A stretch of DNA of 64,000 bases from Candidatus Oxydemutatoraceae bacterium (lineage in GTDB: Bacteria; Pseudomonadota; Gammaproteobacteria; Poriferisulfidales; Oxydemutatoraceae), in the NCBI GenBank assembly GCA_965211995.1, contig OZ243040.1:1555363-1619362 (forward strand), read 5' to 3'. The notes below the pieces were generated by a model, which saw only the letters and a list, made by a program, of their open reading frames with translations, was not told where the DNA came from and did no database searches. Of the stretch, positions 3,751 to 62,553 are shown in pieces. The position numbers were made by a program, and so were the translations under genes. The stretch's first letter is position 1. Every line of letters begins with the position of its first letter.

Positions 3751-4766
3751 AAAAGTTTGCCCGGTGGGTGCGCCCGCGCGCGGCCCGCTGCGTGATGGTG
3801 CTGTGTGCGCTATGCGCGGACGCGCCCGCCGCCGATTACAGCGTGCGCCCCGAAGTGCGCGCCTATATAGACGAGTTGGTGGCGGCGCATAATTTCGAGC
3901 GCGCGCACCTGATCCGCCTGTTCAAGGACGTCAGGCGGCAGACCTCGGCGCTCAAGGCGATGGACCGGCAGGCCGAGGCAAAGCCGTGGCATGAGTACCG
4001 CAAAATCTTCGTCAACGACAAACGCATCGAAAGAGGCATTGATTTCTGGAAAGCGAACGCGAAATTACTGGCCCAGGTCGAGCGCGAATACCTGGTGCCG
4101 GCGGCGGTGGTACTCGCGATTGCCGGCGTCGAGACCTACTACGGCGACAATCTCGGGCGTTTTCCGGTGTTCGACGCGCTCGTGACCCTCGGTTTCGACT
4201 ATCCGCGCCGCGCCGCGTTTTTTCGCAAAGAACTGACCGAAATGCTGCTGCTCGGACGCGAGGAGGACTTCGACTACGAACAAGTGAGAGGCTCGTTTTC
4301 GGGCGCGGTCGGGTTCAGCCAGTTCATGCCGAGCAGTTACCGCTATTACGCGGTGGATTTTGACGGCAACGGCAAACGCGACCTGTGGCACACGCCCGAC
4401 GCGCTCGCGAGCATCGCGAATTATCTCGCGCGCCACGGCTGGAAACGCGGCGGCGCGGTCGCAAACAGGATCAAACTCGAAAAAGCCGCGGGCAACCTGC
4501 CGCTCAACAAGGACCTCAAGCCGTGGCTGTCGCAAGCGGACGCGGGCAACTACGGCCTCGGCAAGATCACGGGCATCGCCGACGGCGAGCCGCTGTTTTC
4601 GCTGCTTGCGTTTGAACTCAAGGGCGGCACGAATGAGCATTGGGCGACGTACCACAACTTTTACGTGATCAGCCGTTATAATCACAGCCGCCGCTACGCG
4701 ATGGCGGTCTATCAACTCAGCGAAATTCTGAAACAACGTTACTTGGCAAACTCCGACGATGGTTGA
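3747..4766 (+). CDS. mltB: lytic murein transglycosylase B family
   Basis: Signal peptide from a TTG at 3747 (alternative ATG at 3795) that overlaps the rodA stop; body matches MltB ('AGVETYYG...GAVGFSQFMPSSY...DFDGNGKRDLW'). The 632-aa ORF starting at 2868 is a GC-frame artefact over rodA. Confidence 0.8.
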   Translation: MKKFARWVRPRAARCVMVLCALCADAPAADYSVRPEVRAYIDELVAAHNFERAHLIRLFKDVRRQTSALKAMDRQAEAKPWHEYRKIFVNDKRIERGIDFWKANAKLLAQVEREYLVPAAVVLAIAGVETYYGDNLGRFPVFDALVTLGFDYPRRAAFFRKELTEMLLLGREEDFDYEQVRGSFSGAVGFSQFMPSSYRYYAVDFDGNGKRDLWHTPDALASIANYLARHGWKRGGAVANRIKLEKAAGNLPLNKDLKPWLSQADAGNYGLGKITGIADGEPLFSLLAFELKGGTNEHWATYHNFYVISRYNHSRRYAMAVYQLSEILKQRYLANSDDG

Positions 4767-4975
4767 CTGCGCGGTCGCAACGGCGGCACCGGCGAGGTGC
4801 CTGATCCCGGCGGCGTACGGAATCAGCCGTTATAATCACAGCCGCCGCCGCGTGATGGCGGTCTGTCCACTCAGCGAAATTCTGAAACAACGTTACTTGG
4901 CGAACCCCGACGATGGTTGATTGCGCGGTCGCAACGGCGGCACCGGCGAGGCGTCTGATCCCGGCGGCGGTTGCC
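4668..4975. repeat. tandem duplication, 2 x ~154 bp (~90% identical), spanning the mltB 3' end and the rlpA 5' end
   Basis: 'atcagccgttataatcacagccgccgc...gaaattctgaaacaacgttacttgg...gatggttga(c/t)tgcgcggtcgcaacggcggcaccggcgagg' occurs at 4668 and again at 4822. Confidence 0.85.
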
Positions 4976-5476
4976 GCGTTCGTCTGCGGCTGCGCCGGCG
5001 TGTCTGAGTTGCCCTACAAACCCGCGGACGTTTACATCGCCGTGCATACAATCCCCGGCGATTGCCGCGGCGCACATCCCTCGTACACGATCAAGGGGCG
5101 GCGCTATTGGATCGAGAACGTGCACGTCGGGCATACGGAAACCGGCACGGCTTCGTGGTACGGCAGGCAGTTTCACGGCAGAAAGACCGCGAGCGGCGAA
5201 GTCTTCGATATGCACCGGATGAGCGCGGCGCACAAAACCCTGCCGCTGTTTTCGACCGTCAAGGTGGTCAACCTTGACAACGGCAGGGAAGTGACGGTCA
5301 GGATCAACGACCGCGGCCCGTTTGCGGGCGAGCGTTTGATTGATTTGTCGTACGCGGCCGCAAAGAGGCTCGGGATGGTCAGCGTCGGCGTCGCGCCGGT
5401 GCGGGTGACCGTGACCGGGACCCCGGCCGGGCGCGAGATGCACGCCGCGCTTTCGGATCCCGTCAGGATCAACTGA
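4913..5476 (+). CDS. rlpA: septal ring lytic transglycosylase RlpA (DPBB domain lipoprotein)
   Basis: Lipobox 'FVCGCAG'; DPBB core '[21 protein letters not shown]...[10 protein letters not shown]'; the start lies in the second copy of the 154-bp duplication. Confidence 0.8.
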
Positions 5477-5478
5477 AG

Positions 5479-6636
5479 ATGACATTTCACGGCATCGGTG
5501 CACCCCGCTCACGGCTCGTCGCGGCGGCGGTGCTTTGGGCGTTCGCCTCCTGCGGTTTCGCCGCGCAGGTGATCGTGCCCGACCCCCCGGCCCTCGACGT
5601 CAACGGCTACATTCTGACGGACTTTCACAGCGGCGCCGTGATCGCGCATAAAAACGCCGACGAGCCCGCCGTACCGGCGAGCATCACCAAATTGATGACC
5701 GCTTACCTCGTGTACGAGGCGCTGGCCGAAGGCTCGCTCAGCCTCGACGAGGAAATCAAGGTCAGCGAGTACGCGTGGAAAACCGAAGGGTCGCGCATGT
5801 TCATTGAGGTCGGCTCGAAAGTGCGCGTCGAAGACCTGCTGCTGGGGATGGTCGTGCAGTCGGGCAACGACGCGAGCGTCGCGCTCGCCGAGCACGTCGC
5901 CGGCTCCGAAGCGGCGTTCGCGGGCCTGATGAACAAAAAAGCCGCGGCGCTCGGCATGACCGGCTCCAATTTCGCCAACGCCACCGGCCTGCCCATGCCG
6001 AACCACCGCATGACCGCACACGATATCGCGGTGCTGTCGCGCGCACTGATCCGGGATTTTCCGGACCATTACGCGATGTATTCGGTCAAAGAATTCACTT
6101 ATAACAACATCAAGCAACACAACCGCAACCGCCTTTTGTGGAGAGACCGCAGCGTAGATGGCCTCAAAACCGGACACACCAACGACGCCGGTTACTGTCT
6201 CGCGGCCTCGGCACAGCGCGACGACATGCGCCTGATCGCGGTGCTGCTCGGCAGCGACAGCGAAAAACGGCGCTCGACGCAGGCGTCGCAACTGCTCGAT
6301 TACGGCTTCAGGTTTTTCACGACCCACCAACTTTATCAGGCAATGCAGCCAATGTACGAAGTGCGGGTGTGGGGCGGGAAACCGAAGCAACTGCAACTCG
6401 GAGTGCGCGAAGACTTCTACGTCACCGTCCCGAGAGGAACCCGGCGCAAACTCGAGATTGAAAGCCAGGTGGTCGACGGGATAGACGCGCCGGTTTCCCG
6501 GATGCAGCCCCTCGGCGTGATCAAAGTCGGCTACGCGGACCGGTTCAGCCGCGAGGAGCCGCTGGTCGCGCTTTCAGACGTGCCGCGCGGGAACATCATG
6601 GCGCGCATGGTTGACGGATTTTTGAAACTGTTTTGA
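5479..6636 (+). CDS. dacA: D-alanyl-D-alanine carboxypeptidase (PBP5/6 family)
   Basis: Signal peptide; SITK (SxxK), SGN and KTG motifs; same rlpA-dacA order as in enterobacteria. Confidence 0.8.
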   Translation: MTFHGIGAPRSRLVAAAVLWAFASCGFAAQVIVPDPPALDVNGYILTDFHSGAVIAHKNADEPAVPASITKLMTAYLVYEALAEGSLSLDEEIKVSEYAWKTEGSRMFIEVGSKVRVEDLLLGMVVQSGNDASVALAEHVAGSEAAFAGLMNKKAAALGMTGSNFANATGLPMPNHRMTAHDIAVLSRALIRDFPDHYAMYSVKEFTYNNIKQHNRNRLLWRDRSVDGLKTGHTNDAGYCLAASAQRDDMRLIAVLLGSDSEKRRSTQASQLLDYGFRFFTTHQLYQAMQPMYEVRVWGGKPKQLQLGVREDFYVTVPRGTRRKLEIESQVVDGIDAPVSRMQPLGVIKVGYADRFSREEPLVALSDVPRGNIMARMVDGFLKLF

Positions 6637-9396: not shown

Positions 9397-9692
9397 TATA
9401 GATAGTTGACCTGCGCTTACCCGCCGTCTCCCCTCGCGTTGCCACCCCGCGGTGGAGCCATGCCGTCAATAAACGGCGCGAAGACACGGGCACAACGGCT
9501 GCCGCAATCGCTTATCGGGAAATAGATACCGCTCGTTCCCCCAAGCGTCATAACCCGGTTGACATGGTGTAAATAGACATGCTTGTTCGCTCGGGGGGCG
9601 CTTGGCGCACCTCAACGTTTAACCGGATCCCGCCCCTGGCATTCGCAAAGATGTGGCGGTGGGAGCACGTTTTTGACCAATGGAGGTCAATT

Positions 9693-10388
9693 ATGGAGAA
9701 TATGACTCAAAGTCACCCAACTGCCGCCGCGCAGAGACTCAAATTGGAACAAGCCGACTTCACACCCAATCAGGCCGATGCCCTGACTCAAGCCATCGGA
9801 CGACTGGCCACCAAAGGCGAGTTGAACGAGGCGGTGTCGAACCTTGTCACCAAAGACGAGTTCAGGGAAGCCATATCGCACATGGTCACCAAGGATGAAT
9901 TCCTGGAAGCCATATCACACATGGTCACCAAGGATGAATTCCTGGAAGCCATATCGCGCATGGTCACCAAGGATGAATTCTTGGAAGCCATATCGAATAT
10001 GGTCACCAAGGAAGAACTCGCAAGAGTCGAGGCCAGGCTGGACCATATGGCAACCAAGGAAGACCTCGCAAGAGTCGAGGCCAGGCTGGACAACACAGCA
10101 ACCAAGGAAGACCTCGCAAGAGTCGAAGCCAGGCTGGACAACACAGCAACCAAGGAAGACCTCGCAAGAGTCGAGGCCAGGCTGGACAACACAGCAACCA
10201 AGGAAGACCTCCTGAAAATCCAACTGGCAACCAAGGAAGAACTCCTGAAAGTCCAAGTCGATCTGATGAAGTATTTGGACAAGAAGATCTTCCATTTGCT
10301 CATCATGGTGCCGGTGCTCGTGGTCGCCGTGACCGGCGCGATGCTCGCCTTTGCACCGCCGCTGCTCAAACTGCTGTGGGGCGGCTGA
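9693..10388 (+). CDS. coiled-coil repeat protein with C-terminal TM anchor, tentatively DUF1640/CCDC90-like
   Basis: GGAGG 7 nt upstream of the ATG; four 13-aa repeats 'VTKDEFLEAISHM' and four 16-aa repeats 'ATKEDLARVEARLDNT', then hydrophobic tail 'IFHLLIMVPVLVVAVTGAMLAF'. Confidence 0.5.
   Translation: MENMTQSHPTAAAQRLKLEQADFTPNQADALTQAIGRLATKGELNEAVSNLVTKDEFREAISHMVTKDEFLEAISHMVTKDEFLEAISRMVTKDEFLEAISNMVTKEELARVEARLDHMATKEDLARVEARLDNTATKEDLARVEARLDNTATKEDLARVEARLDNTATKEDLLKIQLATKEELLKVQVDLMKYLDKKIFHLLIMVPVLVVAVTGAMLAFAPPLLKLLWGG
9846..10200 (+). repeat. in-frame tandem repeats inside the CDS: 4 x 39 bp followed by 4 x 48 bp
   Basis: 'gtcaccaaggatgaattcctggaagccatatc.cacatg' x4, then 'gcaaccaaggaagacctcgcaagagtcgaggccaggctggacaacaca' x4, near-perfect copies. 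Confidence 0.9.
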
Positions 10389-12330: not shown

Positions 12331-12566
12331 CGGGGAATCGCCCTTGTGCGCCGCCTGAAAAAGCCGCCTGGATTGATCGGACGCAGGGCAATTATAGGGA
12401 AGTTAGGCAGTTTAGGGTTTTTTGATAACTTGGCTAACTTCGGTATAAACCGGCTGTTGTGGACTCCATCAGAAACCCGTATGCGCCCGGAGCAGGGGTT
12501 GCTCCCCCGGAATTGGCTGGTCGCCGGGAAATCCTTGAAGCGATGCGAATTGCATTGGAGCGGGTT

Positions 12567-13529
12567 TTACTTCTTTGTTTCATAATTCTCTAAAACTAGT
12601 TGAGCAAAGTGCTCTCCATCAATAAGCACAATATTTTTCCCGGTCGAGTCGTAATAATCGTCAGCTTTTTTTATGGCTTCTTCTGAAATTTTCCCTGACG
12701 TAATTACCATTCCAAGTTGGGTGTCTTCGTGTTTCATGCCTCGAATTAACTGCTCTACAACTTCTGCGCCGGCTGGTGAATCAGGTTGCCAATACTTTGC
12801 TTGAACGGCGACCTTCTGCTCAAACATACCTGCAACCGTAAAGTCTGCAATCACATCAGCCCCTTTATCTTTGCAGCGGGCCACGACCTTAGATTCCTCG
12901 GCTCCCATATTTAGCAGCACCCTTTCAATAAGGCGCTCAAATTCATCAGGATTCATTCTGCCTGTTCTAATCTCTTCAAGCGTTTGCGAAATTAACTTTT
13001 GCTTAAGGTCACTTTCAAATGTGGGCTCATCTCCGGTCTTGGCAATGTTTAAGCAATCCTTAATTTGATCAATTAAGCGAGTGGCATCCGCACTGGTGCC
13101 TCGTATTTTCATCCGTGCAACCAGTGCAGATTTAGCGAATTTTCTTTCGATCGGCTTCTTTTCATTTAGCCACTTTACCGGTCTGCGGTAAGCCGAATCA
13201 TCATCTTTCTTTTCAGGCAAGTATGTTGCCGAACCTATGACTTCAGCGACATAAAACTTTGACCCGCTATGAGGAACGACGACTAAATCCCCTACACCCA
13301 TGTCACGTATAAAGCGCCACATATGTCCAGCTGCGCTGCCTGCTTTTCGAAAATCTGGGTCATCTGGATGATATTTTTTATGGATGATCTCTCTAAACTC
13401 CATCCATTTTAGACCCTTATCTAAGAGCCCTTCCGCATCAGCCCAACCGATAATTAATTGGTTTGATTCAAGCGCTTCTTGAACGCAATCTTTCCCGCTT
13501 GGAGATATTCTAAGAATGAATGCTTTCAT
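12567..13529 (-). CDS. Mrr-type PD-(D/E)xK restriction endonuclease with an N-terminal PUA/EVE-like domain (putative modification-dependent nuclease)
   Basis: Low-GC gene. C-terminal 'GADVIADF...FEQKVAVQAKYW' is the Mrr_cat D-(E/Q)xK motif; the N-terminal ~150 aa are beta-rich with 'GDLVVVPHSGSKFYVAEVIG', resembling a PUA-like reader fold. Confidence 0.6.
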   Translation of the reverse strand: MKAFILRISPSGKDCVQEALESNQLIIGWADAEGLLDKGLKWMEFREIIHKKYHPDDPDFRKAGSAAGHMWRFIRDMGVGDLVVVPHSGSKFYVAEVIGSATYLPEKKDDDSAYRRPVKWLNEKKPIERKFAKSALVARMKIRGTSADATRLIDQIKDCLNIAKTGDEPTFESDLKQKLISQTLEEIRTGRMNPDEFERLIERVLLNMGAEESKVVARCKDKGADVIADFTVAGMFEQKVAVQAKYWQPDSPAGAEVVEQLIRGMKHEDTQLGMVITSGKISEEAIKKADDYYDSTGKNIVLIDGEHFAQLVLENYETKK

Positions 13530-13556
13530 TTTCCAAGTCCCTTGGTTAAGTTGAAT

Positions 13557-14426
13557 TCAGGCGAATAGCTTTTTCAGCCATGTAAAAACGCCGGGATAAT
13601 GTTGCAAATCCAGCACGAACTCCTGACCGATTTTTGCAGAGTCCAGAAGCGTAAATTTATTGCCTTTGACTTTCTTCCAGTTCGTCATTCTTTTGTTATA
13701 ACTTAAAGCAAGTTCCTCGCTTTTTGGATAAAAACAGATCGGCAGTTCCCAAACTGATTTGTTGTTTTGGGTCATATCAGTCAGAATCTGTATCGGCTTA
13801 ACCTTATTAAAAACACCATAGCCCGCTTGATTGGAATTGATTTTAGAGGGTAAGGCTCGACTGCCCACATAAACGGTGTTTTTCTTGTTGTCTATGCCGC
13901 ACAAATGGGGATGATGTTTGAGCCATGGATATTTTTTAAGAACGTCTTTCTCTTTGCCATATATCGGGATTACTTCTTCAACGAACAGCCATCCGTATAT
14001 TGCGTGCATATTTATCGAATCCCGCTTGAACTTCCAAGTTCCCCCGTGTTTCTCTATTTCTCTGAACCAGCCGAAGTAAATAAACAGATCCCCCACCCCG
14101 ACACCGGCATTTTCCAAATGCCCTTGGGCGGCACCCACTTGTCCGAATGCCCCTTTCCAACCTTTCGGTCTATTCGCAAGGAGTCGCCGGTCTATGTCGG
14201 GATCGAGATGAACATATTTCGAAACCCCAGATTTCTTCTTTCCTGTCAGGCTTTGAACAATATCAACTATGTCATAACCTTTTACATTCAGATCATTTAA
14301 TCTCGTCGGTGAACGTGAGGCTGGAATCGGCAGAGAAACCATTCCCCCATCTGGAAGTATCGGACTTGGTATTCCCCCATTGGAAGAATCGAATCCTTTT
14401 CTGCTTAGAATGATTTTCATCTGCAC
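13557..14426 (-). CDS. hypothetical protein (289 aa) encoded immediately upstream of the Mrr-like nuclease; no recognisable family
   Basis: Low-GC ORF, co-directional with the nuclease gene 27 bp downstream; N-terminus 'MKIILSRKGFDSSNGGIPSPILPDGGMVSLPIP'; a second PUA-like-looking segment 'GDLFIYFGWF...HAIYGWLFVEEV'. Confidence 0.5.
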   Translation of the reverse strand: MQMKIILSRKGFDSSNGGIPSPILPDGGMVSLPIPASRSPTRLNDLNVKGYDIVDIVQSLTGKKKSGVSKYVHLDPDIDRRLLANRPKGWKGAFGQVGAAQGHLENAGVGVGDLFIYFGWFREIEKHGGTWKFKRDSINMHAIYGWLFVEEVIPIYGKEKDVLKKYPWLKHHPHLCGIDNKKNTVYVGSRALPSKINSNQAGYGVFNKVKPIQILTDMTQNNKSVWELPICFYPKSEELALSYNKRMTNWKKVKGNKFTLLDSAKIGQEFVLDLQHYPGVFTWLKKLFA

Positions 14427-14632
14427 TTGCCGAGCGTTTTACACTTTATGCGCGTCCCTTTAGAGGGCTGGCATCTTTCAGATGGTTTTAGACGCTCACC
14501 TCTTCTACATCTGCTGCAAACTTTAGAGGGGGGCATTTTTTAGCCCGTTTTAGAATTTCTAAAACTTCTTCATAAACCTTCTTACGTTCAGGTTGTCGTT
14601 CAAGTTGTGAGGAGGATATCTTTATACGCCGT

Positions 14633-15742
14633 TTGCCATTTCCTCCGTACATATACTCATGTAGTTTTGGGGCGATTTTTTTAACAAAATCTCCTTTCTC
14701 TACCGTTCGCTGCCTCAGAACCTTGTGCCACCTGCCGAAACATCCGAACGGCATCGCGGTCAGGGAGTTGCGCCGGAGATTGCGCAACGACAGATTCGAG
14801 ATCAGCATCCGCACCCTGCAACGCGACCTGCGCGATTTGTCCGTCGCTTTTCCCATCACCGCCGAGGAGCAGGGGCGCCGCCTGGTTTGGTGCTGGTCTC
14901 GCGACGCCACGCTTTTTTCGATCCCGTCCATGGACGCCTACACCGCGCTGACTTTTATGCTGGCCGAGTCACATCTGGCCGAGTTGTTTCCCGCAAGCAT
15001 CGGCTCGGGCCTTAAGCCGTACTTCGATGCGGCGCGGAAGGTTCTGAAGAAAAGCGGGAGAGGCCATCTGAGCGAGTGGAAAAGGAAAGTCAGAGTTATT
15101 CCGCGCAGCCAGTCGCTGATGCCGGCACGCATACGCCCGCGGGTGAACCACGCGGTACACGACGCGCTGCTGCGGGACAAGCGGCTGCACGTCCGGTACC
15201 GGGCACGCGACGCATCGCAGGACGACGAGTGGGAAATCAACCCTCTTGCGCTCGTGCATCGCCACGGGGTGAGTTACCTGGTTTGCACTTCAGAAAAAGA
15301 TCGCAACGTCAGGCAACTGGCATTGCACCGTTTTCGCACAGCCAGGGTGCTGGACAAAGCGATTGTAAAACCGATCGGAGTTGATCTGAGCGAGTTTTGG
15401 CAATCAAAGCCGTTCGATTATCCCACCGGCGGCAAAATTGATTTGGACGTGTTGTTTGACGCCGGGGTTGCGAAACACTTGCGGGAAACCCCGCTCGGCC
15501 CGGCAGCCGCCAGCCGCCAGCCGGTTGCGAAACACTTGCGGGAAACCCCGCTCGGCCCGGGGCAGAGTTTGTGCAAGCATCCCGGCGGACGAACGAGATT
15601 AAGGATCAATATCGAAAGCACTTCTCAACTGCGCTGGTGGTTGTTGGGTTTCGGCAATTACGCCGAGGTCGTCGGCCCCAGGGAACTGAGAGCCGAGTTC
15701 ACGCGGATAGCACGGGGCCTCGGCGAGATGTATTCGCTGTAA
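14633..15742 (+). CDS. WYL-domain transcriptional regulator (HTH-WYL-WCX, BrxR/CapW-like)
   Basis: HTH 'GIAVRELRRRLRNDRFEISIRTLQRDLRDL'; WYL core 'LHVRYRARDASQDDEWEINPLALVHRHGVSYLVCTSEKDRNVRQLALHRF'; divergent from the minus-strand operon; start uncertain (an alternative TTG further downstream is possible); internal 57-bp in-frame duplication at 15467-15580. Confidence 0.7.
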   Translation: MPFPPYIYSCSFGAIFLTKSPFSTVRCLRTLCHLPKHPNGIAVRELRRRLRNDRFEISIRTLQRDLRDLSVAFPITAEEQGRRLVWCWSRDATLFSIPSMDAYTALTFMLAESHLAELFPASIGSGLKPYFDAARKVLKKSGRGHLSEWKRKVRVIPRSQSLMPARIRPRVNHAVHDALLRDKRLHVRYRARDASQDDEWEINPLALVHRHGVSYLVCTSEKDRNVRQLALHRFRTARVLDKAIVKPIGVDLSEFWQSKPFDYPTGGKIDLDVLFDAGVAKHLRETPLGPAAASRQPVAKHLRETPLGPGQSLCKHPGGRTRLRINIESTSQLRWWLLGFGNYAEVVGPRELRAEFTRIARGLGEMYSL

Positions 15743-15753: not shown

Positions 15754-18501
15754 TCACCCCGTCCAGCCAAGTCCCGCCGCCACGCAGTTAATTGACAACA
15801 GCAGCGCGACCAGTTTTTCCTGATGGCTGCTCTCATCGGTCACGTCCATGCCGCGCAACTCGGAGATCAAGCGCACCTGTTCAAACCCGGCTTGATCCAC
15901 CATCGGCAGGCGTCTTTCGAGGCGGCGCCCGAAGCGCGGGAATCTCTCGCACAGGTGTTTTTTGCCGGTAATGCTGAGCAGCATTTCCGCGCTCAGGCGG
16001 TACTCGTCCTTGATCAGGCCGAAGATCTTGTCGCGCACGCCGGTGTCGGGCACCATCTCCGCGTAAGCGGCGGCGATATCAAGATTGACCTGCGGCAGGT
16101 TCTTTTCGACTTCGTTGGCGATCAGGCGAAACAAAGGGCAGTCCCGCAGCATCGTGCGCAGCAACGCAAGCGCGCCTTCATGTTCCGACACCAAGGTCCG
16201 CACCGCGGAACCGAAGCCGAACCAGCCGGGCACCATCATTCGGTTCTGCGACCACGCGAACACCCAGGGGATCGCGCGCAGGTCGTCGAGCGTGCCGGCG
16301 CCAAAGCGCTGTGCCGGGCGCGACCCGATCTTCAGCAGCGCCAACTCCCCGACCGGACTCGCCGCCTGATAGAACATAAGCAGTCCTTTCTGATCAGCCA
16401 ATCGGCGGTAGGCCGCGAACGAAGCGGCGGACAAGGTTTCCATCGCCGCATCGAATTCGCTGTTGCGCGTCAGCCGCCGGTCAACGCCGGACAGCAGGCT
16501 GTGTTCAAGCGCCGACGCGCACAGCATTTCCAGTTGATGCTCGGCGGTGCCCAGGTTCGCGAACTTTGCAGACACCACTTCGCCCTGTTCGGTCACCCGC
16601 ATTCTGCCGTTGACCGTGAACGGCGGCTGCGCGGCAATTGCGTCCTCGATCGGGGCGCCGCCGCGGCTGCTCGAACCGCCGCGCCCGTGGAAAAAAGACA
16701 CCGCGACGCCGTGCTCACGGCCGACGGCGTGCAGCCGTTGCTGCGCCTTGCCGGTCTCCCAGTTCGAGCAGACGAAGCCGCCGTCCTTGTTGGAGTCCGA
16801 ATACCCGACCATGATCTCCTGCACGCCGCCGAGCGAGTCAAGCGTGCGGCGCACGGCGTCCGCCGTCAGGATTTCCGCAAGAATGTCCGGCCCCTTGCGC
16901 AGATCGTTGATGGTTTCGAGCAGCGGCACCACCGCGATGCGGCACGCGCCGGCGTTGAATAATCCGGCGAACTTCGCGAGCAGATAGACGTTCAAAACGT
17001 CCGCGCCTGAGCGCGTCATGCTCAGGATGAAACTGTTGAACGCGGATTTGTCGAGACGGCCACCGACTTCGGCGACGAGACGGAAGATCTTGAAAGTCTC
17101 GACGGTTTGCCCGGACAATTCAGTGTCCGGAGGCAGGCGCGGGCAGGGCGCGTCGAGCAGTTCCGCCACCCATTTCAGATAGTCGCCGCCGGCTTGCGGC
17201 GGGCGCAGTTCCGCCTTGGCCAAAATCTCCGTCAGGGCCTGATTGATGCGGGTCGAGTTTTCCCTGAGGTCGAGGCTTGCCGTTCTGAAACCGAAGGTCC
17301 GGGCGATGCGGATCAGGCGCAAGACGTAACGGCGGGCGAGGCCGTCGGCGGCCGCGTCGTTCAGACAGCGATACATGATTTCGAGGTCGTCCAGCAATGC
17401 TTCGGCGTCGCGGTAGCCACCGTCGCTTGCGGCGGCGGTGTTTTTGATTTTGGTGATAACGCAGCGCGCGTATTGGCGGAACAACTCTCCGGGGTTGCGC
17501 TTTTCCGTCGCGTCGCGTTCTCCGGAGGCGTCGAGCAACTCGTTCAGGCGCCGCCGAAAATAGCCGGGGACATTGATCGCATGAGCGGCAATGCTCAAAT
17601 GCCTGAGCAGCCCCCTCATTTCCGTTTCCAGGTTGGCGAGGCTGGTCGCACGGTACGTGAACAAAGCCTTGCGCGTGACGTCCGCGGTCACGAACGGGTT
17701 GCCGTCGCGGTCGCCGCCGATCCACGAACCGAAACGCAGCAGCGCCGCGGTTGTCGCGGGCGCCGCCTCGGGGTAATGGGCGGCGAGAGCATCGCAGAGT
17801 TGCTCGTGCACGGTGTTGACCGCTTCAAAGATGGATTCGTGAAAAAAATGGCAGCCCCACGCGATCTCGTCTTCGACCGACGGCTTCTCCAAGCGGATTT
17901 CCCCGGTCATCCACAGCAGGTCTATCTCGTCGCGCAGGCGCAGGATCAATTCGTTGCGCTCCCGCGGCGTCCAGCGCGCGAGTTCGAGTTCTTTCAGCCG
18001 CAGGTAGATGCGCCGGTGTATCTGCAAAACGGTGATGCGCTTGGCTTCGGTCGGATGCGCGGTGATGACCGGCTGTATCAGCGTATCGTTGAGCAGCGCT
18101 TGCACGGTGTCGGCGGTGAGTTCTTTTTCGCGCGCGGCGGCGAACAAACTCATGAACGTGCCATCGTTGCAATCGGCGCCGAGCGAAGTTTCAATCTCGC
18201 GGCGGCGGCGCACGGTCGCGTTCTGCTCGAGGATGTTCAGCAACTGAAACCAGATCCCGCGTGCCTGCAGCGTGTGCAGCAGGTCGAGGTCGCTGCGCGC
18301 GCGCATTTGCCTGCCGGTAAACAACTCTTCTATATGCGGCCGCCGGCGGCGGATAACGTCGAGCAGCAGTTCGTGAAACAGTTGCAGCGTGCGTTCAGCG
18401 TAGGCGATTGAACGCCGGCTGATCTCGGCACGGTCGCGCCCGCGGCGGGGTGCAACCGGTTCGAGGTAGCCGGGATGGTCGCAACGGCGGGTGGCTGTCA
18501 T
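15754..18501 (-). CDS. ppc: phosphoenolpyruvate carboxylase
   Basis: 'VITAHPTEAKR' PEPC signature, ~915 aa; alternative start at 18528 ('MSLRLSLKF'). Confidence 0.9.
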   Translation of the reverse strand: MTATRRCDHPGYLEPVAPRRGRDRAEISRRSIAYAERTLQLFHELLLDVIRRRRPHIEELFTGRQMRARSDLDLLHTLQARGIWFQLLNILEQNATVRRRREIETSLGADCNDGTFMSLFAAAREKELTADTVQALLNDTLIQPVITAHPTEAKRITVLQIHRRIYLRLKELELARWTPRERNELILRLRDEIDLLWMTGEIRLEKPSVEDEIAWGCHFFHESIFEAVNTVHEQLCDALAAHYPEAAPATTAALLRFGSWIGGDRDGNPFVTADVTRKALFTYRATSLANLETEMRGLLRHLSIAAHAINVPGYFRRRLNELLDASGERDATEKRNPGELFRQYARCVITKIKNTAAASDGGYRDAEALLDDLEIMYRCLNDAAADGLARRYVLRLIRIARTFGFRTASLDLRENSTRINQALTEILAKAELRPPQAGGDYLKWVAELLDAPCPRLPPDTELSGQTVETFKIFRLVAEVGGRLDKSAFNSFILSMTRSGADVLNVYLLAKFAGLFNAGACRIAVVPLLETINDLRKGPDILAEILTADAVRRTLDSLGGVQEIMVGYSDSNKDGGFVCSNWETGKAQQRLHAVGREHGVAVSFFHGRGGSSSRGGAPIEDAIAAQPPFTVNGRMRVTEQGEVVSAKFANLGTAEHQLEMLCASALEHSLLSGVDRRLTRNSEFDAAMETLSAASFAAYRRLADQKGLLMFYQAASPVGELALLKIGSRPAQRFGAGTLDDLRAIPWVFAWSQNRMMVPGWFGFGSAVRTLVSEHEGALALLRTMLRDCPLFRLIANEVEKNLPQVNLDIAAAYAEMVPDTGVRDKIFGLIKDEYRLSAEMLLSITGKKHLCERFPRFGRRLERRLPMVDQAGFEQVRLISELRGMDVTDESSHQEKLVALLLSINCVAAGLGWTG

Positions 18502-47048: not shown

Positions 47049-47089
47049 AGCGTTGACTCCCAATAAAGCGCAAACACCGCGCACCGCAA

Positions 47090-47825: not shown

Positions 47826-48266
47826 TGAATAAAGGTTGCGCTCACATTCGCCCGATGCGGGGGTTTTTAAATCCATGACCCGCTCGACGCGCGCATCTAC
47901 TGCCGAAATATCGTGCGCGCCGCCGGTTTCGAGCGAAACCGCATAGCCCGCGTCGCACAGGCGGGTCAACAAGTCGAGGCTGCGCGGCTGCGCGAGCGGC
48001 TCGCCGCCGGTGACGGTCACGCGCCGCGGCGCGTACGCCGCAACCTGCGACAAGATCTCGGCGAGGCTCATCCCGCGCCCGCCGCTAAAGGCGTATGCAG
48101 TGTCGCAATAGTCGCAGCGCAGCGGGCAACCGGTCAGGCGCACGAATACGGTGGGGAGGCCCGCGTGCGTGGATTCGCCCTGCAGCGAATAAAAAATCTC
48201 GGTGATCTTGACTTGTATTTCTCGCACAGGGGACGCGATGACCGCGCCGTCGGCCACGGCGCTCAT
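47580..48266 (-). CDS. queE: 7-carboxy-7-deazaguanine synthase (radical SAM)
   Basis: 'CPLRCDYCDT' radical-SAM cluster, 'IFYSLQGE' start region. Confidence 0.85.
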   Translation of the reverse strand: MSAVADGAVIASPVREIQVKITEIFYSLQGESTHAGLPTVFVRLTGCPLRCDYCDTAYAFSGGRGMSLAEILSQVAAYAPRRVTVTGGEPLAQPRSLDLLTRLCDAGYAVSLETGGAHDISAVDARVERVMDLKTPASGECERNLYSNVEHLRAGDQVKFVICDRDDYEWAKRQVKRHLLAARCEVLFSPAWQRQDAAALADWILADHLPVRLQLQLHKLLWGDVPGR

Positions 48267-49432: not shown

Positions 49433-49455
49433 CGCGGCGGTCGTATGCCGGCGTC

Positions 49456-50775
49456 TCACCAGGTAAAAGGCGACCACGCAGCGCCGCGCACGTCCGACGC
49501 GGACAACGGAATCAGTTTGCCGAAGACGCCGTCGGTAGTCATCAACCCGAACGCGCTCTTGCCGCCGCGATCGGTGATGTAGCCGAGCAACTGACCGTTG
49601 GCGGTGAAACGCGGGCCTTCGGCGCCGGGGTTGAACACCAACTCCGACTCGTCGCCGTCCTTGCCGGTGAAGTCCTTGATCACGATCACGAAGCCCTTGC
49701 TGCGCCGGCTCAGAAAAGCGATCTGGTCGCCGCGCGGGGAAATGCTGGCGTCGGAGTTGTAAGTGCCGCGGAAAGTGATGCGGCGCGGCGCGGCGCCGTC
49801 GCTGTCAACCCGGTACAACTGCGGGCTGCCGCTGCGGTCGGAGGTGAAGACCAGCGTGCCGTCGGGCGCCCAGGTCGGCTCGGTGTCTATAAAAACGTTG
49901 TCGGTTACGCGCAGAATACGCTTGGACGCGAGTTCGATGACGTAAACGTCGGGGCTGCCGCCCGCCGAACTGACGTAGGCGAGGCGCTCGCCGTCGCCCG
50001 ACCAACTCGGCAAACTCGCCGGCGCGGTGCCCCCGCCGAGCATCTCACGCGCGCCGGTCGCAACCGTTTGCACCACGATCTCGGGCTGGCCGTTTTCATA
50101 CGACACGTAGGCGATCCGCTTGCGGTCGGGCGACCACGTCGGCGACATCAATTGGTGCGGAGAACTGTGAATCGCGTGGGCGTTGCGGCCGTCGGCGTCG
50201 CTGACGTACAAAGTGCTCCTGTGGCGGCGCCAACTGTAATGCTCGGCGCTGATGAACGCGATGCGGGTGCTGAAAATACCGGGGATGTCGGTGAGTTCCT
50301 TGTAGATCAGGTCGCTGATCTGATGCGCGACGCGATCCACCGTGCCGCCGGAGTCAATGACGAATTCCTTCAGGCGCTTGCCGCGCACCGCGTCGTGCAA
50401 TTCAAAGTGGACCTGCCCGTCTTGCGCGATCGCGCCGATGATGACTTTTTCAACGCCGTGGATGAGCCACACGCCGTAGTCGAGATCGCTGCCGAGCAGC
50501 GGCGACTCCGATACGCCGGCGTCAATGAGCAAGAACAGGCCGCTGTAGGCGAGATCGTCGGCGACGATGCGGTGGTAGTTGCGGTCGAGCCCCTCGGGTT
50601 CACCGCGAAACGGCGACACCGCGATGGGCACGCCGCCTTCGACGCCTTCGGTGACCTCGATTTTGAGTTCGGCGGGCGCCGGCAACGCCGACACCAGCCC
50701 GTATAACAAGGCACACGGCAGAACGCATCGCCGCGCGGCTTCAGTACTCCTGGCGAAAAGTAATTTCAACTTCAT
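49456..50775 (-). CDS. tolB: Tol-Pal system beta-propeller protein TolB
   Basis: 439 aa with a typical TolB sequence. Confidence 0.9.
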   Translation of the reverse strand: MKLKLLFARSTEAARRCVLPCALLYGLVSALPAPAELKIEVTEGVEGGVPIAVSPFRGEPEGLDRNYHRIVADDLAYSGLFLLIDAGVSESPLLGSDLDYGVWLIHGVEKVIIGAIAQDGQVHFELHDAVRGKRLKEFVIDSGGTVDRVAHQISDLIYKELTDIPGIFSTRIAFISAEHYSWRRHRSTLYVSDADGRNAHAIHSSPHQLMSPTWSPDRKRIAYVSYENGQPEIVVQTVATGAREMLGGGTAPASLPSWSGDGERLAYVSSAGGSPDVYVIELASKRILRVTDNVFIDTEPTWAPDGTLVFTSDRSGSPQLYRVDSDGAAPRRITFRGTYNSDASISPRGDQIAFLSRRSKGFVIVIKDFTGKDGDESELVFNPGAEGPRFTANGQLLGYITDRGGKSAFGLMTTDGVFGKLIPLSASDVRGAAWSPFTW

Positions 50776-51943
50776 GGTCGAACACGTCCCACGAGGGCGG
50801 AGACGGTAACGGGTTTGATTTCCATACTGCGTCTTCCACCGAGAGCATGTAAAAACGATCCCCCTTGCAACTGATCACTTGTACGCTCTCAATGTTACCA
50901 CTGCGATCCTGCCGCAACTTAACGACGCAATCGCCGCCTTTGACGCTCGCGGGCGGGCGCGTCCAGTGGGTTTCGATGCTGCGGCGAATACTCTGAGCGT
51001 ATTCTTTGGTCAAGGCCGTGATCTTCGCGCGCCTGATGCGTGCCTGTTCTTCGGCCTCGGCCTGGCGCCGCGCTTCCTCGGCCAGGCGCTTTTGCTCCTC
51101 CTCCAACTTGCGCTGCGCTTCCTCGGCCAGGCGTTGCTTCTCCTCCTCGGCCTGGCGCCGCGCTTCCTCGGCGAGACGCTGCTTCTCCTCCTCCAACTTG
51201 CGCTGCGCTTCCTCGGCCAGGCGCTTTTGCTCCTCCTCCAACTTGTGCTGCGCTTCCTCGGCGAGGCGCTGCTTCTCCTCCTCCAACTTGCGCTGCGCTT
51301 CCTCGGCCAGGCGTTGCTGTTCTTCCCCCAACTTGTGCTGCGCTTCCTCGGTGAAACGCTTTTGTTCTTCCTCGGCCTTGCGCCGCGCTTCTTCGGCCAG
51401 GCGCTTTTGTTCTCCCTCAAGTTTGTGCTGCGCTTCCTCGGCGAGACGCTTTTGTTCTCCCTCGAGTTTGTGCTGCGCTTCCTCGGCGAGGCGCTTTTGT
51501 TCTCCCTCGAGTTTACGCTGCGCTTCCTCGGCTAAACGCTTTTGCTCCTCCTCGGCCTCGGTGCGCGCCTGCCTGGACTGCGCTTCCTGTTCGAGCCGGG
51601 CTTGTTCAAGGCGCTTTTGCTCTCCTTCGGCTTTGAGCCGCGCCTGTTCGAGACGCTTTTTCTCCTCTTCGGCCGCGCGCCGCGCTTCCTCCTGCGCACG
51701 CCGCCGCGCCTCATCCGCTTCACGCTGCCTGCGCTCCCTGTCGCGCTTTTGCTGCAACATTTGCTCGATTTCCTGGGGGCTTACCGCGGTCGCCTCGATG
51801 ACCGGGCGCGGGGCGGACACGGGTTTCGACACCGATACCAGCGACGGGCCGATACTGAATGCCGCGAGAGCGACCAGAGCGAGATGGATCAGAATCGAAG
51901 CGATCAGCGACTTTTGCTGCCGCCGGCGGCCACGCTTTTTCAT
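50741..51943 (-). CDS. tolA: TolA
   Basis: N-terminal TM helix, long 'EEAQRKLEEEQKRLAEEA' helical repeats, C-terminal TolA domain. Confidence 0.8.
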   Translation of the reverse strand: MKKRGRRRQQKSLIASILIHLALVALAAFSIGPSLVSVSKPVSAPRPVIEATAVSPQEIEQMLQQKRDRERRQREADEARRRAQEEARRAAEEEKKRLEQARLKAEGEQKRLEQARLEQEAQSRQARTEAEEEQKRLAEEAQRKLEGEQKRLAEEAQHKLEGEQKRLAEEAQHKLEGEQKRLAEEARRKAEEEQKRFTEEAQHKLGEEQQRLAEEAQRKLEEEKQRLAEEAQHKLEEEQKRLAEEAQRKLEEEKQRLAEEARRQAEEEKQRLAEEAQRKLEEEQKRLAEEARRQAEAEEQARIRRAKITALTKEYAQSIRRSIETHWTRPPASVKGGDCVVKLRQDRSGNIESVQVISCKGDRFYMLSVEDAVWKSNPLPSPPSWDVFDHEVEITFRQEY

Positions 51944-54937: not shown

Positions 54938-55029
54938 GTGGTTACCTCTTGTTTATTTGGCAACGTTGCCGCTCAAATACTCCAAAGTCTCTTTCACTCT
55001 GTTCACCGCTATGCCGAACAATTTGATCT

Positions 55030-55763
55030 GGGTTCAAGATACTTTAAGCGGTCTATTTCGTATAGATTTCAGCAGGTATTGATACATATTTTCGTGGCGC
55101 ATATTGAAGCGAAACTCACACTCTTTCAAGTGGCAATAAAACCTCTGTATGTGAATACCCCGAAAGCGGGCAAGGCGCACCTTGCAAAGCCCCCGGAAGT
55201 TCCCGATGCCGTTGATATGGCGGCTACCTTGCGCGAACTCGTTGTGGCTGTGTCTGATGCGGTAATGTTGCTTATAGCCGAGGTCGGCGAGACCGTCTCA
55301 GGTTCTAAATCCATCGCTATAAACCGCCATCTGCTTACTGGCCTTGCCCTTGTTAATCGGCAGGATTTCAGCCATAGAGCAGTTTTTAACCACTTGGCCT
55401 TGCCGCCACGCTTGAACATGCCGAACACCGGCGTTTTTCCGGCAGCACCGCGCCCGCGCCTGCCGCGTACCCGGCGGGGCCCGAAGTATCTTTCATCCAA
55501 CTCAACCGCCCCCTCGCCAAAGGGGCTGGCGCGCTCGCATTCATGGGCGATGTGTTGTCTGATATGGTGGAACAAGCGGTTTGCCTCAGGGTGGTTGATG
55601 CCTGCGATTTGGGCGACTTTGCAGGCCTCGATATCCAGGCAAAACAGGCGCAAAGTCTGCCGGAATTTAGCCGCGGAAATTCGTGAACGAAGGATATACT
55701 TGTTTTTCATTTATGGGACAATAAGTTACATTCATTTTAGTATATCTTAAAGTGTCTTGAACC
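55030..55763 (-). mobile_element. IS1595-family element, internally deleted (~734 bp), with 17-bp terminal inverted repeats
   Basis: Inverted repeats 'ggttcaagatactttaa' at 55030 and 'ttaaagtgtcttgaacc' at 55747; encodes only the transposase N-terminus. Confidence 0.7.
55126..55710 (-). pseudogene. IS1595-family transposase, truncated or frameshifted
   Basis: 'MKNKYILRSRISAAKFRQTLRLFCLDIEACKVAQIAGINHPEANRLFHHIRQHIAHEC' matches the IS1595 (ISXO2-like) transposase N-terminus; the remainder of the ORF is out of frame. Confidence 0.65.
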
Positions 55764-55832
55764 TAAATTAATTCATAGGCAGAAATAAAATTCACTAGTA
55801 TCATTGCAATTATTATCAAACGAGTAACCAAA

Positions 55833-58537: not shown

Positions 58538-58578
58538 ATCCTGCAAATTCGAGATATTAATATTGGCCTGCCAGGCTC

Positions 58579-58782
58579 GGTTCAAGATACTTTAAGCAGT
58601 CTATTTCGTATAGATTTCAGCAGGTATTGATACATATTTTCGTGACGCATATTGAAGCAAAACTCACATTCTTTCAAGTGGCAATAAAACCTCTGTATGT
58701 GAATACCCCGAAAGCGGGCAAGGCGCACCTTGCAAAGCCCCCGGAAGTTCCCGAGGCCGTTGATATGGCGGCTGCCTTGGAT
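58579..58782 (-). mobile_element. IS1595-family remnant (right end only)
   Basis: ~93% identical to 55030-55235, including the inverted repeat 'ggttcaagatactttaa'. Confidence 0.65.
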
Positions 58783-59695: not shown

Positions 59696-60502
59696 ATGGA
59701 CGCCTCTCAAGCGATCTCTCTGGCGCTGGTGCAGGGCATCACCGAGTTCCTGCCGGTGTCGAGTTCGGCGCACCTGATCCTGCTGCCGAAGTTGATGGAC
59801 TGGAGCGATCAAGGAATCGCTTTCGACGTCGCGGTGCATCTCGGCACCTTATCCGCCGTGGTTTTTCACTACCGCGCCCCGCTCGCGGATATGCTGAACG
59901 GCCTGCGCCGGCGGCCGCACGGCGACGCCGCGGCGGCCAACACGGCGATGCTGCTCGCGGTCGCGAGCGTGCCGGTGCTCGCCGCCGGCTACACGTTGGA
60001 AAGCGCGATCGAGCAGCACCTGCGCGCGCCGTCGGTGATCGCCGCGACCACCGTCGGCTTCGGTCTGCTGCTGTGGGCCGCCGTGTGGCGCCGGTCAAAG
60101 ACCGCGGCGGCACCGGCGGCGCTGAGCCTTAAAGCGGCATTGATCATCGGTCTCGCGCAGACGCTCGCACTGATCCCCGGCACGTCGCGCGCGGGAATCA
60201 CGATCACCGCCGGGCTTTTTCTCGGCTTATCGCGCGAGCAGTCCATCAACTTCTCGTTCCTGCTCGCGATTCCAGTGATCCTGATCGCGGCACTGTACAA
60301 AGCCGCAAAAATCGGCGTACAAACCGGCGCCGGCGCATGGCCCGACGTATGGCCGATGCTCGCGCTCGGTTTCGCGGTGTCGGCAATATTCGCTTTACTG
60401 ACGATCCGGCTGTTCCTGACGCTGACGGAAAAAATCGGCCTGACGCCGTTCATCGTCTATCGTCTGGCGCTCGGTGCGTTGCTAGTTGCCCTGCTCCTGT
60501 GA
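59696..60502 (+). CDS. uppP: undecaprenyl-diphosphate phosphatase
   Basis: 'ITEFLPVSSSAHL' and 'PGTSRAGITI' are BacA/UppP motifs; start taken at the Met at 59696. Confidence 0.85.
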   Translation: MDASQAISLALVQGITEFLPVSSSAHLILLPKLMDWSDQGIAFDVAVHLGTLSAVVFHYRAPLADMLNGLRRRPHGDAAAANTAMLLAVASVPVLAAGYTLESAIEQHLRAPSVIAATTVGFGLLLWAAVWRRSKTAAAPAALSLKAALIIGLAQTLALIPGTSRAGITITAGLFLGLSREQSINFSFLLAIPVILIAALYKAAKIGVQTGAGAWPDVWPMLALGFAVSAIFALLTIRLFLTLTEKIGLTPFIVYRLALGALLVALLL

Positions 60503-60903
60503 CAAAGCCCCCAGCCGCGCCTTGCGCACGGCTTCACCGACGTCGCCGCCGCAACTTGCGACCACCCTTTTGAGATCGAGCCGGCTCACCGTGTCGAACG
60601 CCGCGCGGATCCGCGACAGACACCGCGCCTTGTCATCCCCGGCAAACGGAAAATCGCAAACCTGCTCCTGTGACGGCTACGGCTTTCGTAAGCATCGAGA
60701 CAGTGCTCGCCCGGCGCGCTGCTAGTTGCCCTGCTCCTGTGACAAAACCCCCAGCCGCGCCTTGCGCACGGCTTCACCGACGTCGCCGCCGCAACTTGCG
60801 ACCACCCTTTTGAGATCGAGCCGGCTCACCGTGTCGAACGCCGCGCGGATCCGCGACAGGCACCGCGCCTTGTCATCCCCGGCAAACGGAAAATCGCAAA
60901 AGC
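60480..60903. repeat. tandem duplication (~240 bp unit) of the overlapping convergent 3' ends of uppP and cca
   Basis: 'tgctagttgccctgctcctgtgacaaa.cccccagccgcgccttgcgcacggcttcaccgacg...' at 60480 and again at 60720. Confidence 0.85.
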
Positions 60904-61864: not shown

Positions 61865-61974
61865 CTGACAAAATACATTTCAAATAGCCGGGCGCGTATA
61901 GTATCTGAAAACGATTTGCGCAGGCCCCGCAAGCAACCGGCCATTTCCAGTCCGGTGTGCGACACAAGAAAGAT

Positions 61975-62378
61975 GCCCGGCGCTGCGCGGCACCGCCTGA
62001 GGCTCGAACGAGACCGCCCTGACCGGCGAAAGCCCGCGTCATCCGCGGATCCAAAAAGATAAATCCGCAGACGACGCGGATGGACACAAGAAAATGACGG
62101 GCACAGGCCGCACCTCAGACTCGCATCCGGCCCCGGTCAGATTGGCGGCGTCGGGAAAAGCGGCAACAGCAGATTAAGGAAAAGGGCCGGCGCTGCGCGG
62201 CACCGCCTGAGGCTCGAACGAGACCGCCCTGACCGGCGAAAGTCCGCGTCATCCGCGGATCCAAAAAGATAAACCCGCAGACGACGCGGATGGGCACAAG
62301 AAAATGACGGGCACAGGCCGCACCTCAGACTCGCATCCGGCCCCGGTCAGATTGGCGGCGTGGGAAAAGCGGCAAGAA
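61975..62378. repeat. intergenic tandem duplication, 2 x ~211 bp, each unit containing ATCCGCGGAT-type palindromes
   Basis: 'gcccggcgctgcgcggcaccgcctgaggctcgaacgagaccgccctgaccggcgaaag.ccgcgtcatccgcggatccaaaaagataaa.ccgcagacgacgcggatgg' at 61975 and again at 62186. Confidence 0.8.
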
Positions 62379-62433
62379 TGACGTGGGGGCTCAGCGCCGC
62401 GGCCGTGTCGGCTCAGGCGACAAAAGCCGAAAG

Positions 62434-62553
62434 GCTTCGCGGGTCATTTTAAGTGCTCCGGCCATATCAACTGCAAGAGACGAAACCGGGGTGCCTTGCG
62501 GGTCATTTAAGTGCTCCGGTCATGTCAACCGCAGATGGCGGAACCGGGGGCTT
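62434..62553. repeat. intergenic tandem duplication, 2 x 60 bp
   Basis: 'ct..gcgggtcattt.aagtgctccgg.cat.tcaac.gcaga' twice. Confidence 0.7.

Follow-up and report, generated by a model that had tools for sequence, protein, structure and literature searches.

Dense short duplications at gene boundaries in a 64-kb window of a Candidatus Oxydemutatoraceae genome

Introduction

Tandem duplication is a textbook kind of mutation, and fixed tandem duplications smaller than a gene are normally rare in bacterial chromosomes, because such events are infrequent, are soon reverted and usually do harm. In animal mitochondrial genomes, tandem duplication followed by random loss usually concerns whole genes and rearranges the gene order. 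In a plant case (2016) and in flap-endonuclease mutants (yeast rad27 and Escherichia coli polA 5'-nuclease), duplications have reportedly been shown by experiment. Here we describe eight short duplications, six of which include a gene start or stop, in a 64,000-nt stretch of chromosome from Candidatus Oxydemutatoraceae bacterium (contig OZ243040.1, positions 1,555,363 to 1,619,362 of the forward strand), which is called the window below.

Microhomology-mediated tandem duplications (MTDs) of fission yeast are flanked by microhomology of 5-8 nt or more, and for E. coli the frequency of detected MTDs was only about 1/20 of that in Schizosaccharomyces pombe (PMC8639346). The E. coli topA (R168C) mutator gives rise to de novo tandem duplications of 2-19 bp which are independent of pre-existing repeats; the mechanism of de novo tandem repeats without pre-existing repeats was called unknown in that work (PMC6954433).

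We consider it fairly probable, taking the interpretation as a whole, that the duplications of the window are real, that they arise by homology-poor events which are blind to gene position, that a survivorship filter determines which of them are seen, and that their density is raised in this lineage.

Eight duplications and their density

All eight duplications listed in the preliminary description of this DNA were recovered where it had placed them, by Tandem Repeats Finder (TRF), a repeat finder, fixed-offset identity profiles and self-BLAST, all applied within the window (Table 1). The units are 58-378 nt long and present in 2-3.3 copies, and the copies are 84-98% identical. The sites had all been called tandem, which is strictly true (head-to-tail) for R1, R2, R5 and R8, while R3, R4, R6 and R7 are interrupted or partial, with 17-136 nt between the well-aligned parts of the copies. 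It had also been said that nearly all of them include a gene start or stop; this applies to six sites and not to R7 and R8, which are purely intergenic. The eight units are locus-specific, with no further copy of any of them in the window by self-BLAST, and no match to the units of R7, R8 and R2 or to the filler of R6 was found elsewhere in 1.5 Mb of fetched loci.

For the density, same-strand repeats of at least 50 nt with at least 80% identity and an offset of 55-1500 nt were counted in the window and in 80 control queC neighbourhoods (1,169 kb) of diverse gamma- and betaproteobacteria, whose QueC is at most 64% identical to that of the window. The window held nine such repeats per 64 kb, and its boundary and intergenic duplications amount to one per 8 kb. 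The controls held 15 repeats per 1,169 kb, seven of which are arrays of tRNA-Lys genes, leaving at most eight, that is at most one per 146 kb. From the controls, 0.44 to 0.82 repeats would be expected in 64 kb (Poisson P 2e-8 to 2e-7), and duplications of the boundary and intergenic class are enriched about 18-fold. The earlier remark that the density is far above what is usual for a bacterial chromosome is thus borne out for this window. Perfect duplications of 7-60 nt reached just about 1.3 times the control level, so the excess is confined to long units (58-378 nt), and a topA-like spectrum with an excess of short perfect duplications was rejected on the same count. Overall, the steady-state density in the lineage is roughly 7-18 times that of other proteobacteria.

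Structure of the duplicated sites

R1 spans the stop codon of mltB (4764-4766) and the start of rlpA (4913). In its first copy mltB is intact and an open reading frame (ORF) of 53 amino acids (aa) is left from the N-terminal part of rlpA (4759-4920); rlpA is intact in the second copy, and the 12 differences between the copies are spread over the codon positions. The unit of R2 consists of about 105 nt of upstream sequence, about 50 nt directly 5' of the ppc ATG and the first about 150 nt of the ppc coding sequence. Its working unit is the one adjoining the ppc body, and Ppc read from the ATG at 18501 has 915 aa and exactly matches database protein P0244; the two upstream units hold truncated ORFs of 73 aa (18611-18832, 18918-19139). 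In R3 every 378-nt unit holds a whole ORF of 76 aa (35450-35680, 35828-36058), for which no match was found in Pfam or PHROG. In R4 a 3'-proximal coding piece of pmbA (44489-44650) recurs at 44736-44894, 30 nt past the pmbA stop (44703-44705), and this second copy is partial, being without the last about 85 nt of the unit.

The unit of R5 is the last about 225 nt of queE with its stop codon, and the start of queC at 47048 comes next. The working gene includes the copy at 47812-47566, and those at 47565-47339 and 47338-47085 are pseudo-copies, which carry a 14-nt deletion and a 12-nt insertion. In R6 the segment present twice is that in which the convergent genes uppP (stop 60502) and cca (stop 60722-60724) overlap with their 3' ends, and the duplication sets the two genes apart. 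R7 sits between the divergent cca and TPR/Cds6_C genes.

Upstream of cca, each R7 unit (61977-62170 and 62187-62375, minus strand) contains a terminator-like hairpin of 17 bp with a T-run behind it on the minus strand. The predicted folding energy is -101.7 kcal/mol (z = -4.8 against shuffled sequence), and there was no Rfam match. From this prediction the element could represent either a small RNA or a terminator, and the short cca-TPR spacers of relatives have no room for an element of this type. An origin of R7 from a long palindrome was rejected, for only the 17-nt hairpin is present.

Table 1. Duplications and repeat arrays of the window, with their junctions, and repeats at the compared loci (L numbers; L081 to L094 are loci of clade relatives).
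Feature	Position	Strand	Repeat structure and location	Junction
R1	4662-4969	+	2 x 154 nt, head-to-tail, 92-93% identical (TRF, repeat finder, offset profiles)	0 nt microhomology
R2	18247-19263	-	3.3 units of 304-307 nt, head-to-tail, at ppc 5' end	about 4 nt microhomology (CGCC)
R3	35444-36071	-	242-nt copies, spacing 378 nt, 88-89% identical; low-GC island	
R4	44489-44894	+	~160-nt copies, spacing 244-247 nt, 90-93% identical	
R5	47085-47885	-	three copies of 228-254 nt, head-to-tail, 93-97% identical	about 4 nt microhomology (TGCG)
R6	60468-60900		193-nt copies, spacing 240 nt, 97% identical	59-nt filler (60661-60719); first 14 nt repeat the uppP end, rest without source in the window
R7	61966-62375		~190-nt copies, spacing 210 nt, 98% identical; intergenic	about 17-nt filler
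R8	62439-62558		2 x 58 nt, head-to-tail, 84% identical; intergenic, upstream of TPR/Cds6_C gene (62607-63494)	about 4 nt microhomology (GCGG)
In-gene array	9846-10256	+	periods 39, 48, 33 nt; inside coiled-coil ORF 9579-10388	
In-gene array	48739-49192	-	3.7 x 123 nt; inside TPR/YfiO-like cpoB (ybgF) gene 48263-49477	
In-gene array	51055-51740	-	periods 45, 42, 24, 21 nt; inside tolA 50741-51943	
Small in-gene array	2700-2729		period 9; in rodA	
Small in-gene array	45611-45660		period 21; in sulphur-transport gene	
L081 ruvC/ruvA	2721-3384		332-nt duplication (L082: 2953-3284, single copy)	1 nt microhomology
L081-L084			307-nt unit over queE stop and queC start; in-frame QueC-N::QueE-C ORF created	
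L085			163-nt duplication of queC 5' part	
L087-L089			two-ORF cassette in duplicate between queE and queC; co-occurring strains differ in array copy number	
L091			three arrays, 97-99.6% identical: at convergent gene pair, next to stop, across start	
L092			one duplication at sga 5' end	
L090/L093 (one 1.67-Mb genome)			no duplications in 44 kb	
L094			tolA array only	
tRNA-Lys arrays after queC (L015, L019, L028, L049, L054, L055, L067)	~10.7-11.1 kb; L028 at 4908-5127			

Comparison with relatives

QueE, Cca and Ppc of the window are on a single contig of 1,943,614 bp in the protein collection. An exact-protein search with its QueC, QueE and TolR found no matching contig, and a 26-mer from the R5 unit had no match in a scan of metagenome contigs. 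The nearest relatives have QueE, Cca and Ppc proteins that are 63-83% identical, and their contigs are 1.3-2.4 Mb long, several being marked circular by the long-read assembler. Because the identity of Cca falls sharply to 52% for all other bacteria, the source belongs, as judged from its proteins, to an isolated, uncultured, GC-rich, small-genome clade within the gamma- and betaproteobacteria.

The fetched loci of relatives contained 14 repeat clusters in 165 kb. The 307-nt queE/queC duplication of L081-L084 was recovered by four independent assemblies, namely one long-read contig, one NCBI metagenome-assembled genome (MAG) and two SPAdes contigs. The relatives thus carry similar duplications at other gene boundaries, and the window's own sites are unduplicated in them, which agrees with the earlier suggestion that the phenomenon is lineage-specific and supports the excess as a property of the lineage.

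The single-copy state was found in relatives for R1, R2, R5, R6, R7 and R8; the comparison of ancestral states covers these six of the eight sites, R3 and R4 having no syntenic relative among the fetched loci. In L092 mltB and rlpA overlap and are not duplicated, and in L094 queE and queC overlap by 4 nt, again with no duplication. The overlap of uppP and cca is 21-24 nt, with no repeat, in L090 and L091. The spacer between cca and the TPR gene is 742 nt in the window versus 89-167 nt in relatives, and that between hprA and ppc is 820 nt versus 53-236 nt. The queE pseudo-copies are 93-97% identical to the gene of their own genome and 71-79% identical to the copies of other genomes; being closest to their own genome's gene, they show that the queE/queC events were independent in each lineage. 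A shared ancient queE duplication had been considered, because the pseudo-copies of both the window and L081 have insertions at the same palindrome, and it was rejected, since the own gene is the closest and the unit boundaries differ. At these six sites the duplications of the window are derived, and at R1, R2 and R6-R8 they are recent and lineage-specific.

Two further observations concern the relatives. The cassette of L087 (11088-12481, also in L088 and L089) consists of ORFs of 89 and 124 aa with no Pfam match, and an ORF beside it contains 123-nt repeats and has 257, 266 and 302 aa in the three co-occurring strains. L085 (16615-20681) and L091 (1-6127) encode giant proteins of over 3,500 aa which combine FGE-sulfatase domains with internal repeats of 1.1 kb, and such proteins are unusual for genomes of about 1.3-2.4 Mb.

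Decay of the copies and junctions

In the coding parts of R1, R2, R4, R5 and R6, the differences between working and extra copies are distributed over codon positions 1:2:3 as 11:22:22. Transitions make up 60 of the 75 substitutions and run in both directions, and all types of substitution occur. The extra copies also contain indels which break the reading frame, as the 14-nt deletion in R5. Because of this spread over codon positions and the frame-breaking indels, the extra copies are unconstrained pseudo-copies and not functional strain alleles; they are genuine and decaying. The pseudo-copies of L091 have lost 24 and 33 nt between direct repeats of 6-7 nt, so the later decay of the copies uses microhomology.

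Microhomology at the junctions had been suggested as a check and was looked for. It amounts to 0-4 nt only, and the junctions of R6 and R7 contain filler DNA, although older junctions are blurred by the divergence of the copies. A slipped-strand process had been among the mechanisms first proposed; such junctions agree less well with classical slippage between sizeable repeats, and they fit template switching or end joining better.

Gene boundaries and in-frame arrays

No unit among the eight lies wholly within a gene, an outcome that has P = 1.4e-4 under random placement of the observed unit sizes on the gene map of the window. Within genes there are in-frame repeat arrays, as had been noted before, and by TRF every period of these is divisible by three. 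The ORFs that bear them stay open (periods 39, 48, 33, 123, 45, 42, 24, 21 and 9 nt). In relatives the arrays have other periods: 114 nt in cpoB of L085 and 201 nt in that of L087, 84 and 90 nt in tolA of L085 and 42 nt in that of L094. In-frame repeat arrays in TolA, linker and coiled-coil proteins are common in many bacteria. The boundary units, unlike the in-gene arrays, have no bias to multiples of three (154, 307, 247, 254, 58). Because the in-gene periods are all divisible by three and occur in tolerant proteins and the boundary units show no such bias, the gene-boundary pattern is most likely a survivorship filter on a general duplication process. Inside a gene, a tandem duplication adds an insertion or shifts the frame; across a gene end, it leaves every gene with a complete copy. 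The preliminary description had supposed a process that duplicates sequence at gene ends: the pattern at the ends is real, but in place of targeting a position-blind process with survivorship fits better.

Proposed mechanism

The duplications would be produced by homology-poor illegitimate events with units of about 60-380 nt, independently of each other and fairly recently. Either a switch of template during replication or staggered breaks that are filled in and rejoined would be the likely route, and some of the events would add filler DNA. Formation is probably blind to gene position. Selection would remove the duplications inside genes, except for in-frame ones in tolerant repetitive proteins (TolA, CpoB and the coiled-coil ORF), and the survivors would span a gene end or lie between genes, as each gene there keeps one complete copy. 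The redundant copy then decays by point mutation and by small microhomology-mediated deletions, and the high steady-state density would come from more frequent formation or from less efficient purging. We infer the survivorship filter, this molecular route and the reason for the high density from the pattern described above.

A heritable peculiarity of replication or repair may make homology-independent duplications of 60-400 nt about ten times more frequent or more persistent in the clade, an idea we put forward tentatively; candidate causes are a change in how flaps or nicks are processed, an end-joining pathway that is active, or a variant topoisomerase. If it is true, separated overlapping genes, multiplied 5' regions and newly created chimeric ORFs (QueC-N::QueE-C) would be its by-products.

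Several points speak against the interpretation as a whole. The arrays of the window are known at the level of one assembled contig, and the sequence examined amounts to 64 kb from the genome itself plus about 165 kb from relatives, among which one genome of the clade (L090/L093) has no duplication in 44 kb. Many of the control loci are contigs of short-read MAGs, which could under-represent near-identical tandem repeats; repeats of 85-95% identity ordinarily assemble without trouble. The ruvC/ruvA duplication of L081, which may be a join artefact, shows that such artefacts do occur in data of this kind. The queE/queC boundary has been hit independently in three lineages, hinting at hotspots beyond survivorship. 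Finally, in the pseudo-units B and C of R2 (18551-19266) the ppc-5' parts are 98.5% identical and the adjoining upstream parts of about 105 nt are 88.6% identical. This uneven divergence does not fit simple neutral decay, and partial gene conversion is its likely cause.

Alternative explanations

The alternative that survives best, and which we still regard as unlikely, is that gene ends are mutational hotspots, at which forks are stalled by hairpins, terminators, transcription-replication conflicts or R-loops so that template switching is set off there, with the boundary bias made by mutation and not by selection. The queE/queC boundary carries independent duplications in the window, in L081-L084 and in L085, plus the cassette duplication of L087-L089, and queE ends near a perfect 12-nt palindrome, CTGCAATTGCAG, where unconstrained copies in two lineages have gained insertions. 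The strong hairpin in the R7 units, and the position of both R6 and the array at 12.6-13.4 kb of L091 at convergent gene ends, point in the same direction. However, the end points lie at no constant distance from stops or starts (0-217 nt inside genes, 13-135 nt outside), the in-frame arrays in TolA, CpoB and the coiled-coil ORF show that the process acts within genes too, and survivorship alone predicts the pattern.

The palindrome CTGCAATTGCAG affects the 3' copies of queE at 47085-47640 of the window and at 10880-10990 of L081. A Leu-to-Pro change (CTG or TTG to CCG) is common to copy 3 of the window and the L081 pseudo-copy and is absent from copy 2 of the window. In these copies the palindrome looks like a quasi-palindrome mutation hotspot.

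It seems improbable that the duplications were kept because they are useful, by uncoupling overlapping genes (mltB/rlpA, uppP/cca), by multiplying a promoter or leader (3.3-fold in ppc) or by supplying small chimeric ORFs. R1 and R6 do turn gene pairs that still overlap in relatives into separate genes, R2 multiplies the upstream region of ppc within a serine-cycle cluster, the ppc-5' parts of two of its pseudo-units are more alike than their flanks, as given above, and an in-frame QueC-N::QueE-C ORF exists in L081. But frameshifts accumulate in the extra copies and substitutions fall on all codon positions, the promoter scan detected no sigma-70-like promoter in the R2 units, the sites differ between relatives with no duplication conserved, and R7 and R8 contain no gene end at all.

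Systematic assembly artefacts, the other possibility raised in the preliminary description, can be set aside for the most part; we give a very small chance to an assembler having joined contigs of co-occurring strains without merging the overlap, or having mis-resolved a cycle in the graph. The copies are 2-16% diverged, contain frame-breaking indels and differ at positions not concentrated at third codon positions (11:22:22), and triplications (R2, R5) and junction fillers (R6, R7) are unexpected from an overlap join. The positions avoid gene interiors (P as above), which an assembler cannot know. In the relatives, the L081-L084 duplication is reproduced by four assemblies of different methods, short- and long-read. 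Such an origin is suggested for one case only: the tandem duplication of ruvC/ruvA in L081 occurs in the long-read contig only, lies exactly where the identity to strain L082 switches from 98.8% to 99.85%, and its second copy is identical to the single copy of L082. This duplication may have arisen by a strain join, an artefact that resembles the biological pattern, and it was not counted as evidence. The contig of the window is itself present in one assembly only.

Scars of integrative elements, in which an element carrying a replacement gene end is lost and leaves two copies with a short spacer, are more improbable still and were rejected together with mobile elements in general. Spacers do separate the copies at R3, R4, R6 and R7, the window has several low-GC islands and remnants of insertion sequences (IS), and foreign small ORFs lie between queE and queC in L087-L089. 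Scans with Pfam and for tRNAs revealed no integrase, tRNA or tmRNA gene close to any of the sites (the tRNA, tmRNA and Rfam scans of the whole window were empty), and the spacers measure 0-136 nt, with none in R1, R2, R5 and R8. The pseudo-copies are closest to the gene of their own genome and not to a foreign allele, no motif is common to the units, each of which is unique to its locus, and the sole long dispersed repeats, the IS1595-like remnants, have no relation to the eight sites.

The template and variable repeat pairs of a diversity-generating retroelement, which the repeat pairs of ~100-200 nt at R1, R4 and R5 with one member at a gene 3' end and the other just downstream might recall, have next to no probability and are refuted by the substitution spectrum (mismatches not adenine-specific, the 60 of 75 transitions running in both directions), the targets being housekeeping enzymes, duplications also occurring at 5' ends and between genes, and no reverse transcriptase domain being found in the ORFs scanned with Pfam, some small ORFs lying outside that scan.

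Gene content of the window

By Pfam the window encodes mrdA, rodA, mltB, rlpA and dacA; tldD and pmbA; queC and queE; uppP and cca; cpoB, tolB, tolA, tolR and tolQ; folD and an Ftr-like gene; and the serine-cycle genes sga, mcl, mtkAB, hprA and ppc. It is an ordinary proteobacterial chromosome interrupted by low-GC islands. The complete-looking serine-cycle cluster (15754-24769 and 36632-39085) is conserved in L092 and L093 and encodes serine-glyoxylate aminotransferase, malyl-CoA lyase, malate thiokinase A/B, a hydroxypyruvate reductase-like dehydrogenase and phosphoenolpyruvate carboxylase, accompanied by folD, the Ftr-like formyltransferase and 5-formyltetrahydrofolate cyclo-ligase. On a contig of 1.94 Mb, this gene set suggests a methylotroph-like metabolism in a small genome.

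Between tolB and cpoB (48263-50775) there is no pal (OmpA-like) gene, and tolB overlaps cpoB, in the window as well as in all fetched relatives of the clade (L081-L094). QueC (46287-47048, minus strand) has an insert of about 35 aa that splits its Pfam match in two, with shorter versions in relatives. Arrays of two or three tRNA-Lys genes directly follow queC in many other gammaproteobacteria, and no tRNA gene follows queC in the clade studied here.

Degraded IS1595 (ISXO2-like) elements lie at 55024-55765, 58572-58779 and 34302-34533, one of them with terminal inverted repeats, GGTTCAAGATACTTTAAGC. A partial copy of 204 nt (96.6% identical), 3.5 kb away, bounds a low-GC segment in which two ORFs of unknown function lie, and the third remnant (80% identical) is in another low-GC island. 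Two low-GC islands are defence-like (12346-15742 and 26269-33861): one holds an Mrr-type restriction endonuclease, Nmad3 and a WYL/WCX regulator, and the other a ResIII helicase-nuclease, a coiled-coil protein, an N6/N4 DNA methylase and an AAA_14/DUF4143 ATPase.

Comparison with known systems

The underlying kind of mutation is well known, and a search of the literature yielded no earlier account of a bacterial genome with gene-boundary duplications as dense as these. A lineage with one duplication per 8-20 kb would be a natural experiment on de novo tandem repeats that arise without pre-existing repeats. Such a lineage would show how selection sculpts the visible pattern of duplications, how overlaps between genes are resolved by duplication and how chimeric ORFs originate from it. 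There are also practical consequences: the truncated copies will be annotated automatically as spurious small genes or pseudogenes, and strain-join artefacts can mimic the pattern, as in one relative.

The in-gene part of the pattern resembles variable number tandem repeat-like arrays in TolA, linker and coiled-coil proteins, where the period is likewise a multiple of three and both period and copy number vary between close relatives. These cover only the arrays within genes, however, and not the eight boundary and intergenic duplications.

Duplication and random loss in mitochondria has in common with our case that the duplications span boundaries and that one copy stays functional while the other decays into spacer, whereas the units here are sub-genic and the gene order is unchanged. 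In the topA R168C mutator, too, a genotype shifts the spectrum towards head-to-tail duplications with no flanking repeats, which gives a precedent for a lineage-specific cause; it differs in size, with 2-19 bp there and an excess confined to units of 58-378 nt here.

With the plant, rad27 and polA cases our duplications share little or no microhomology, occasional filler insertions and a size of tens to a few hundred nucleotides, the duplicated segment being equal to the distance between two lesions. Those cases are experimental; nicks, Ku/LigD end joining and a flap defect are candidates here.

The MTDs of fission yeast are likewise head-to-tail, tens to hundreds of nucleotides long and formed de novo, and they are reversible and thus subject to turnover. 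They are depleted from essential genes, and those retained tend to be in frame or near gene 3' ends, which is the same filter as is proposed for the window. They differ in their longer microhomology (5-8 nt or more versus 0-4 nt here, with filler at two junctions), and they are rare in E. coli, whereas the fixed duplications described here are unusually dense for a bacterium.

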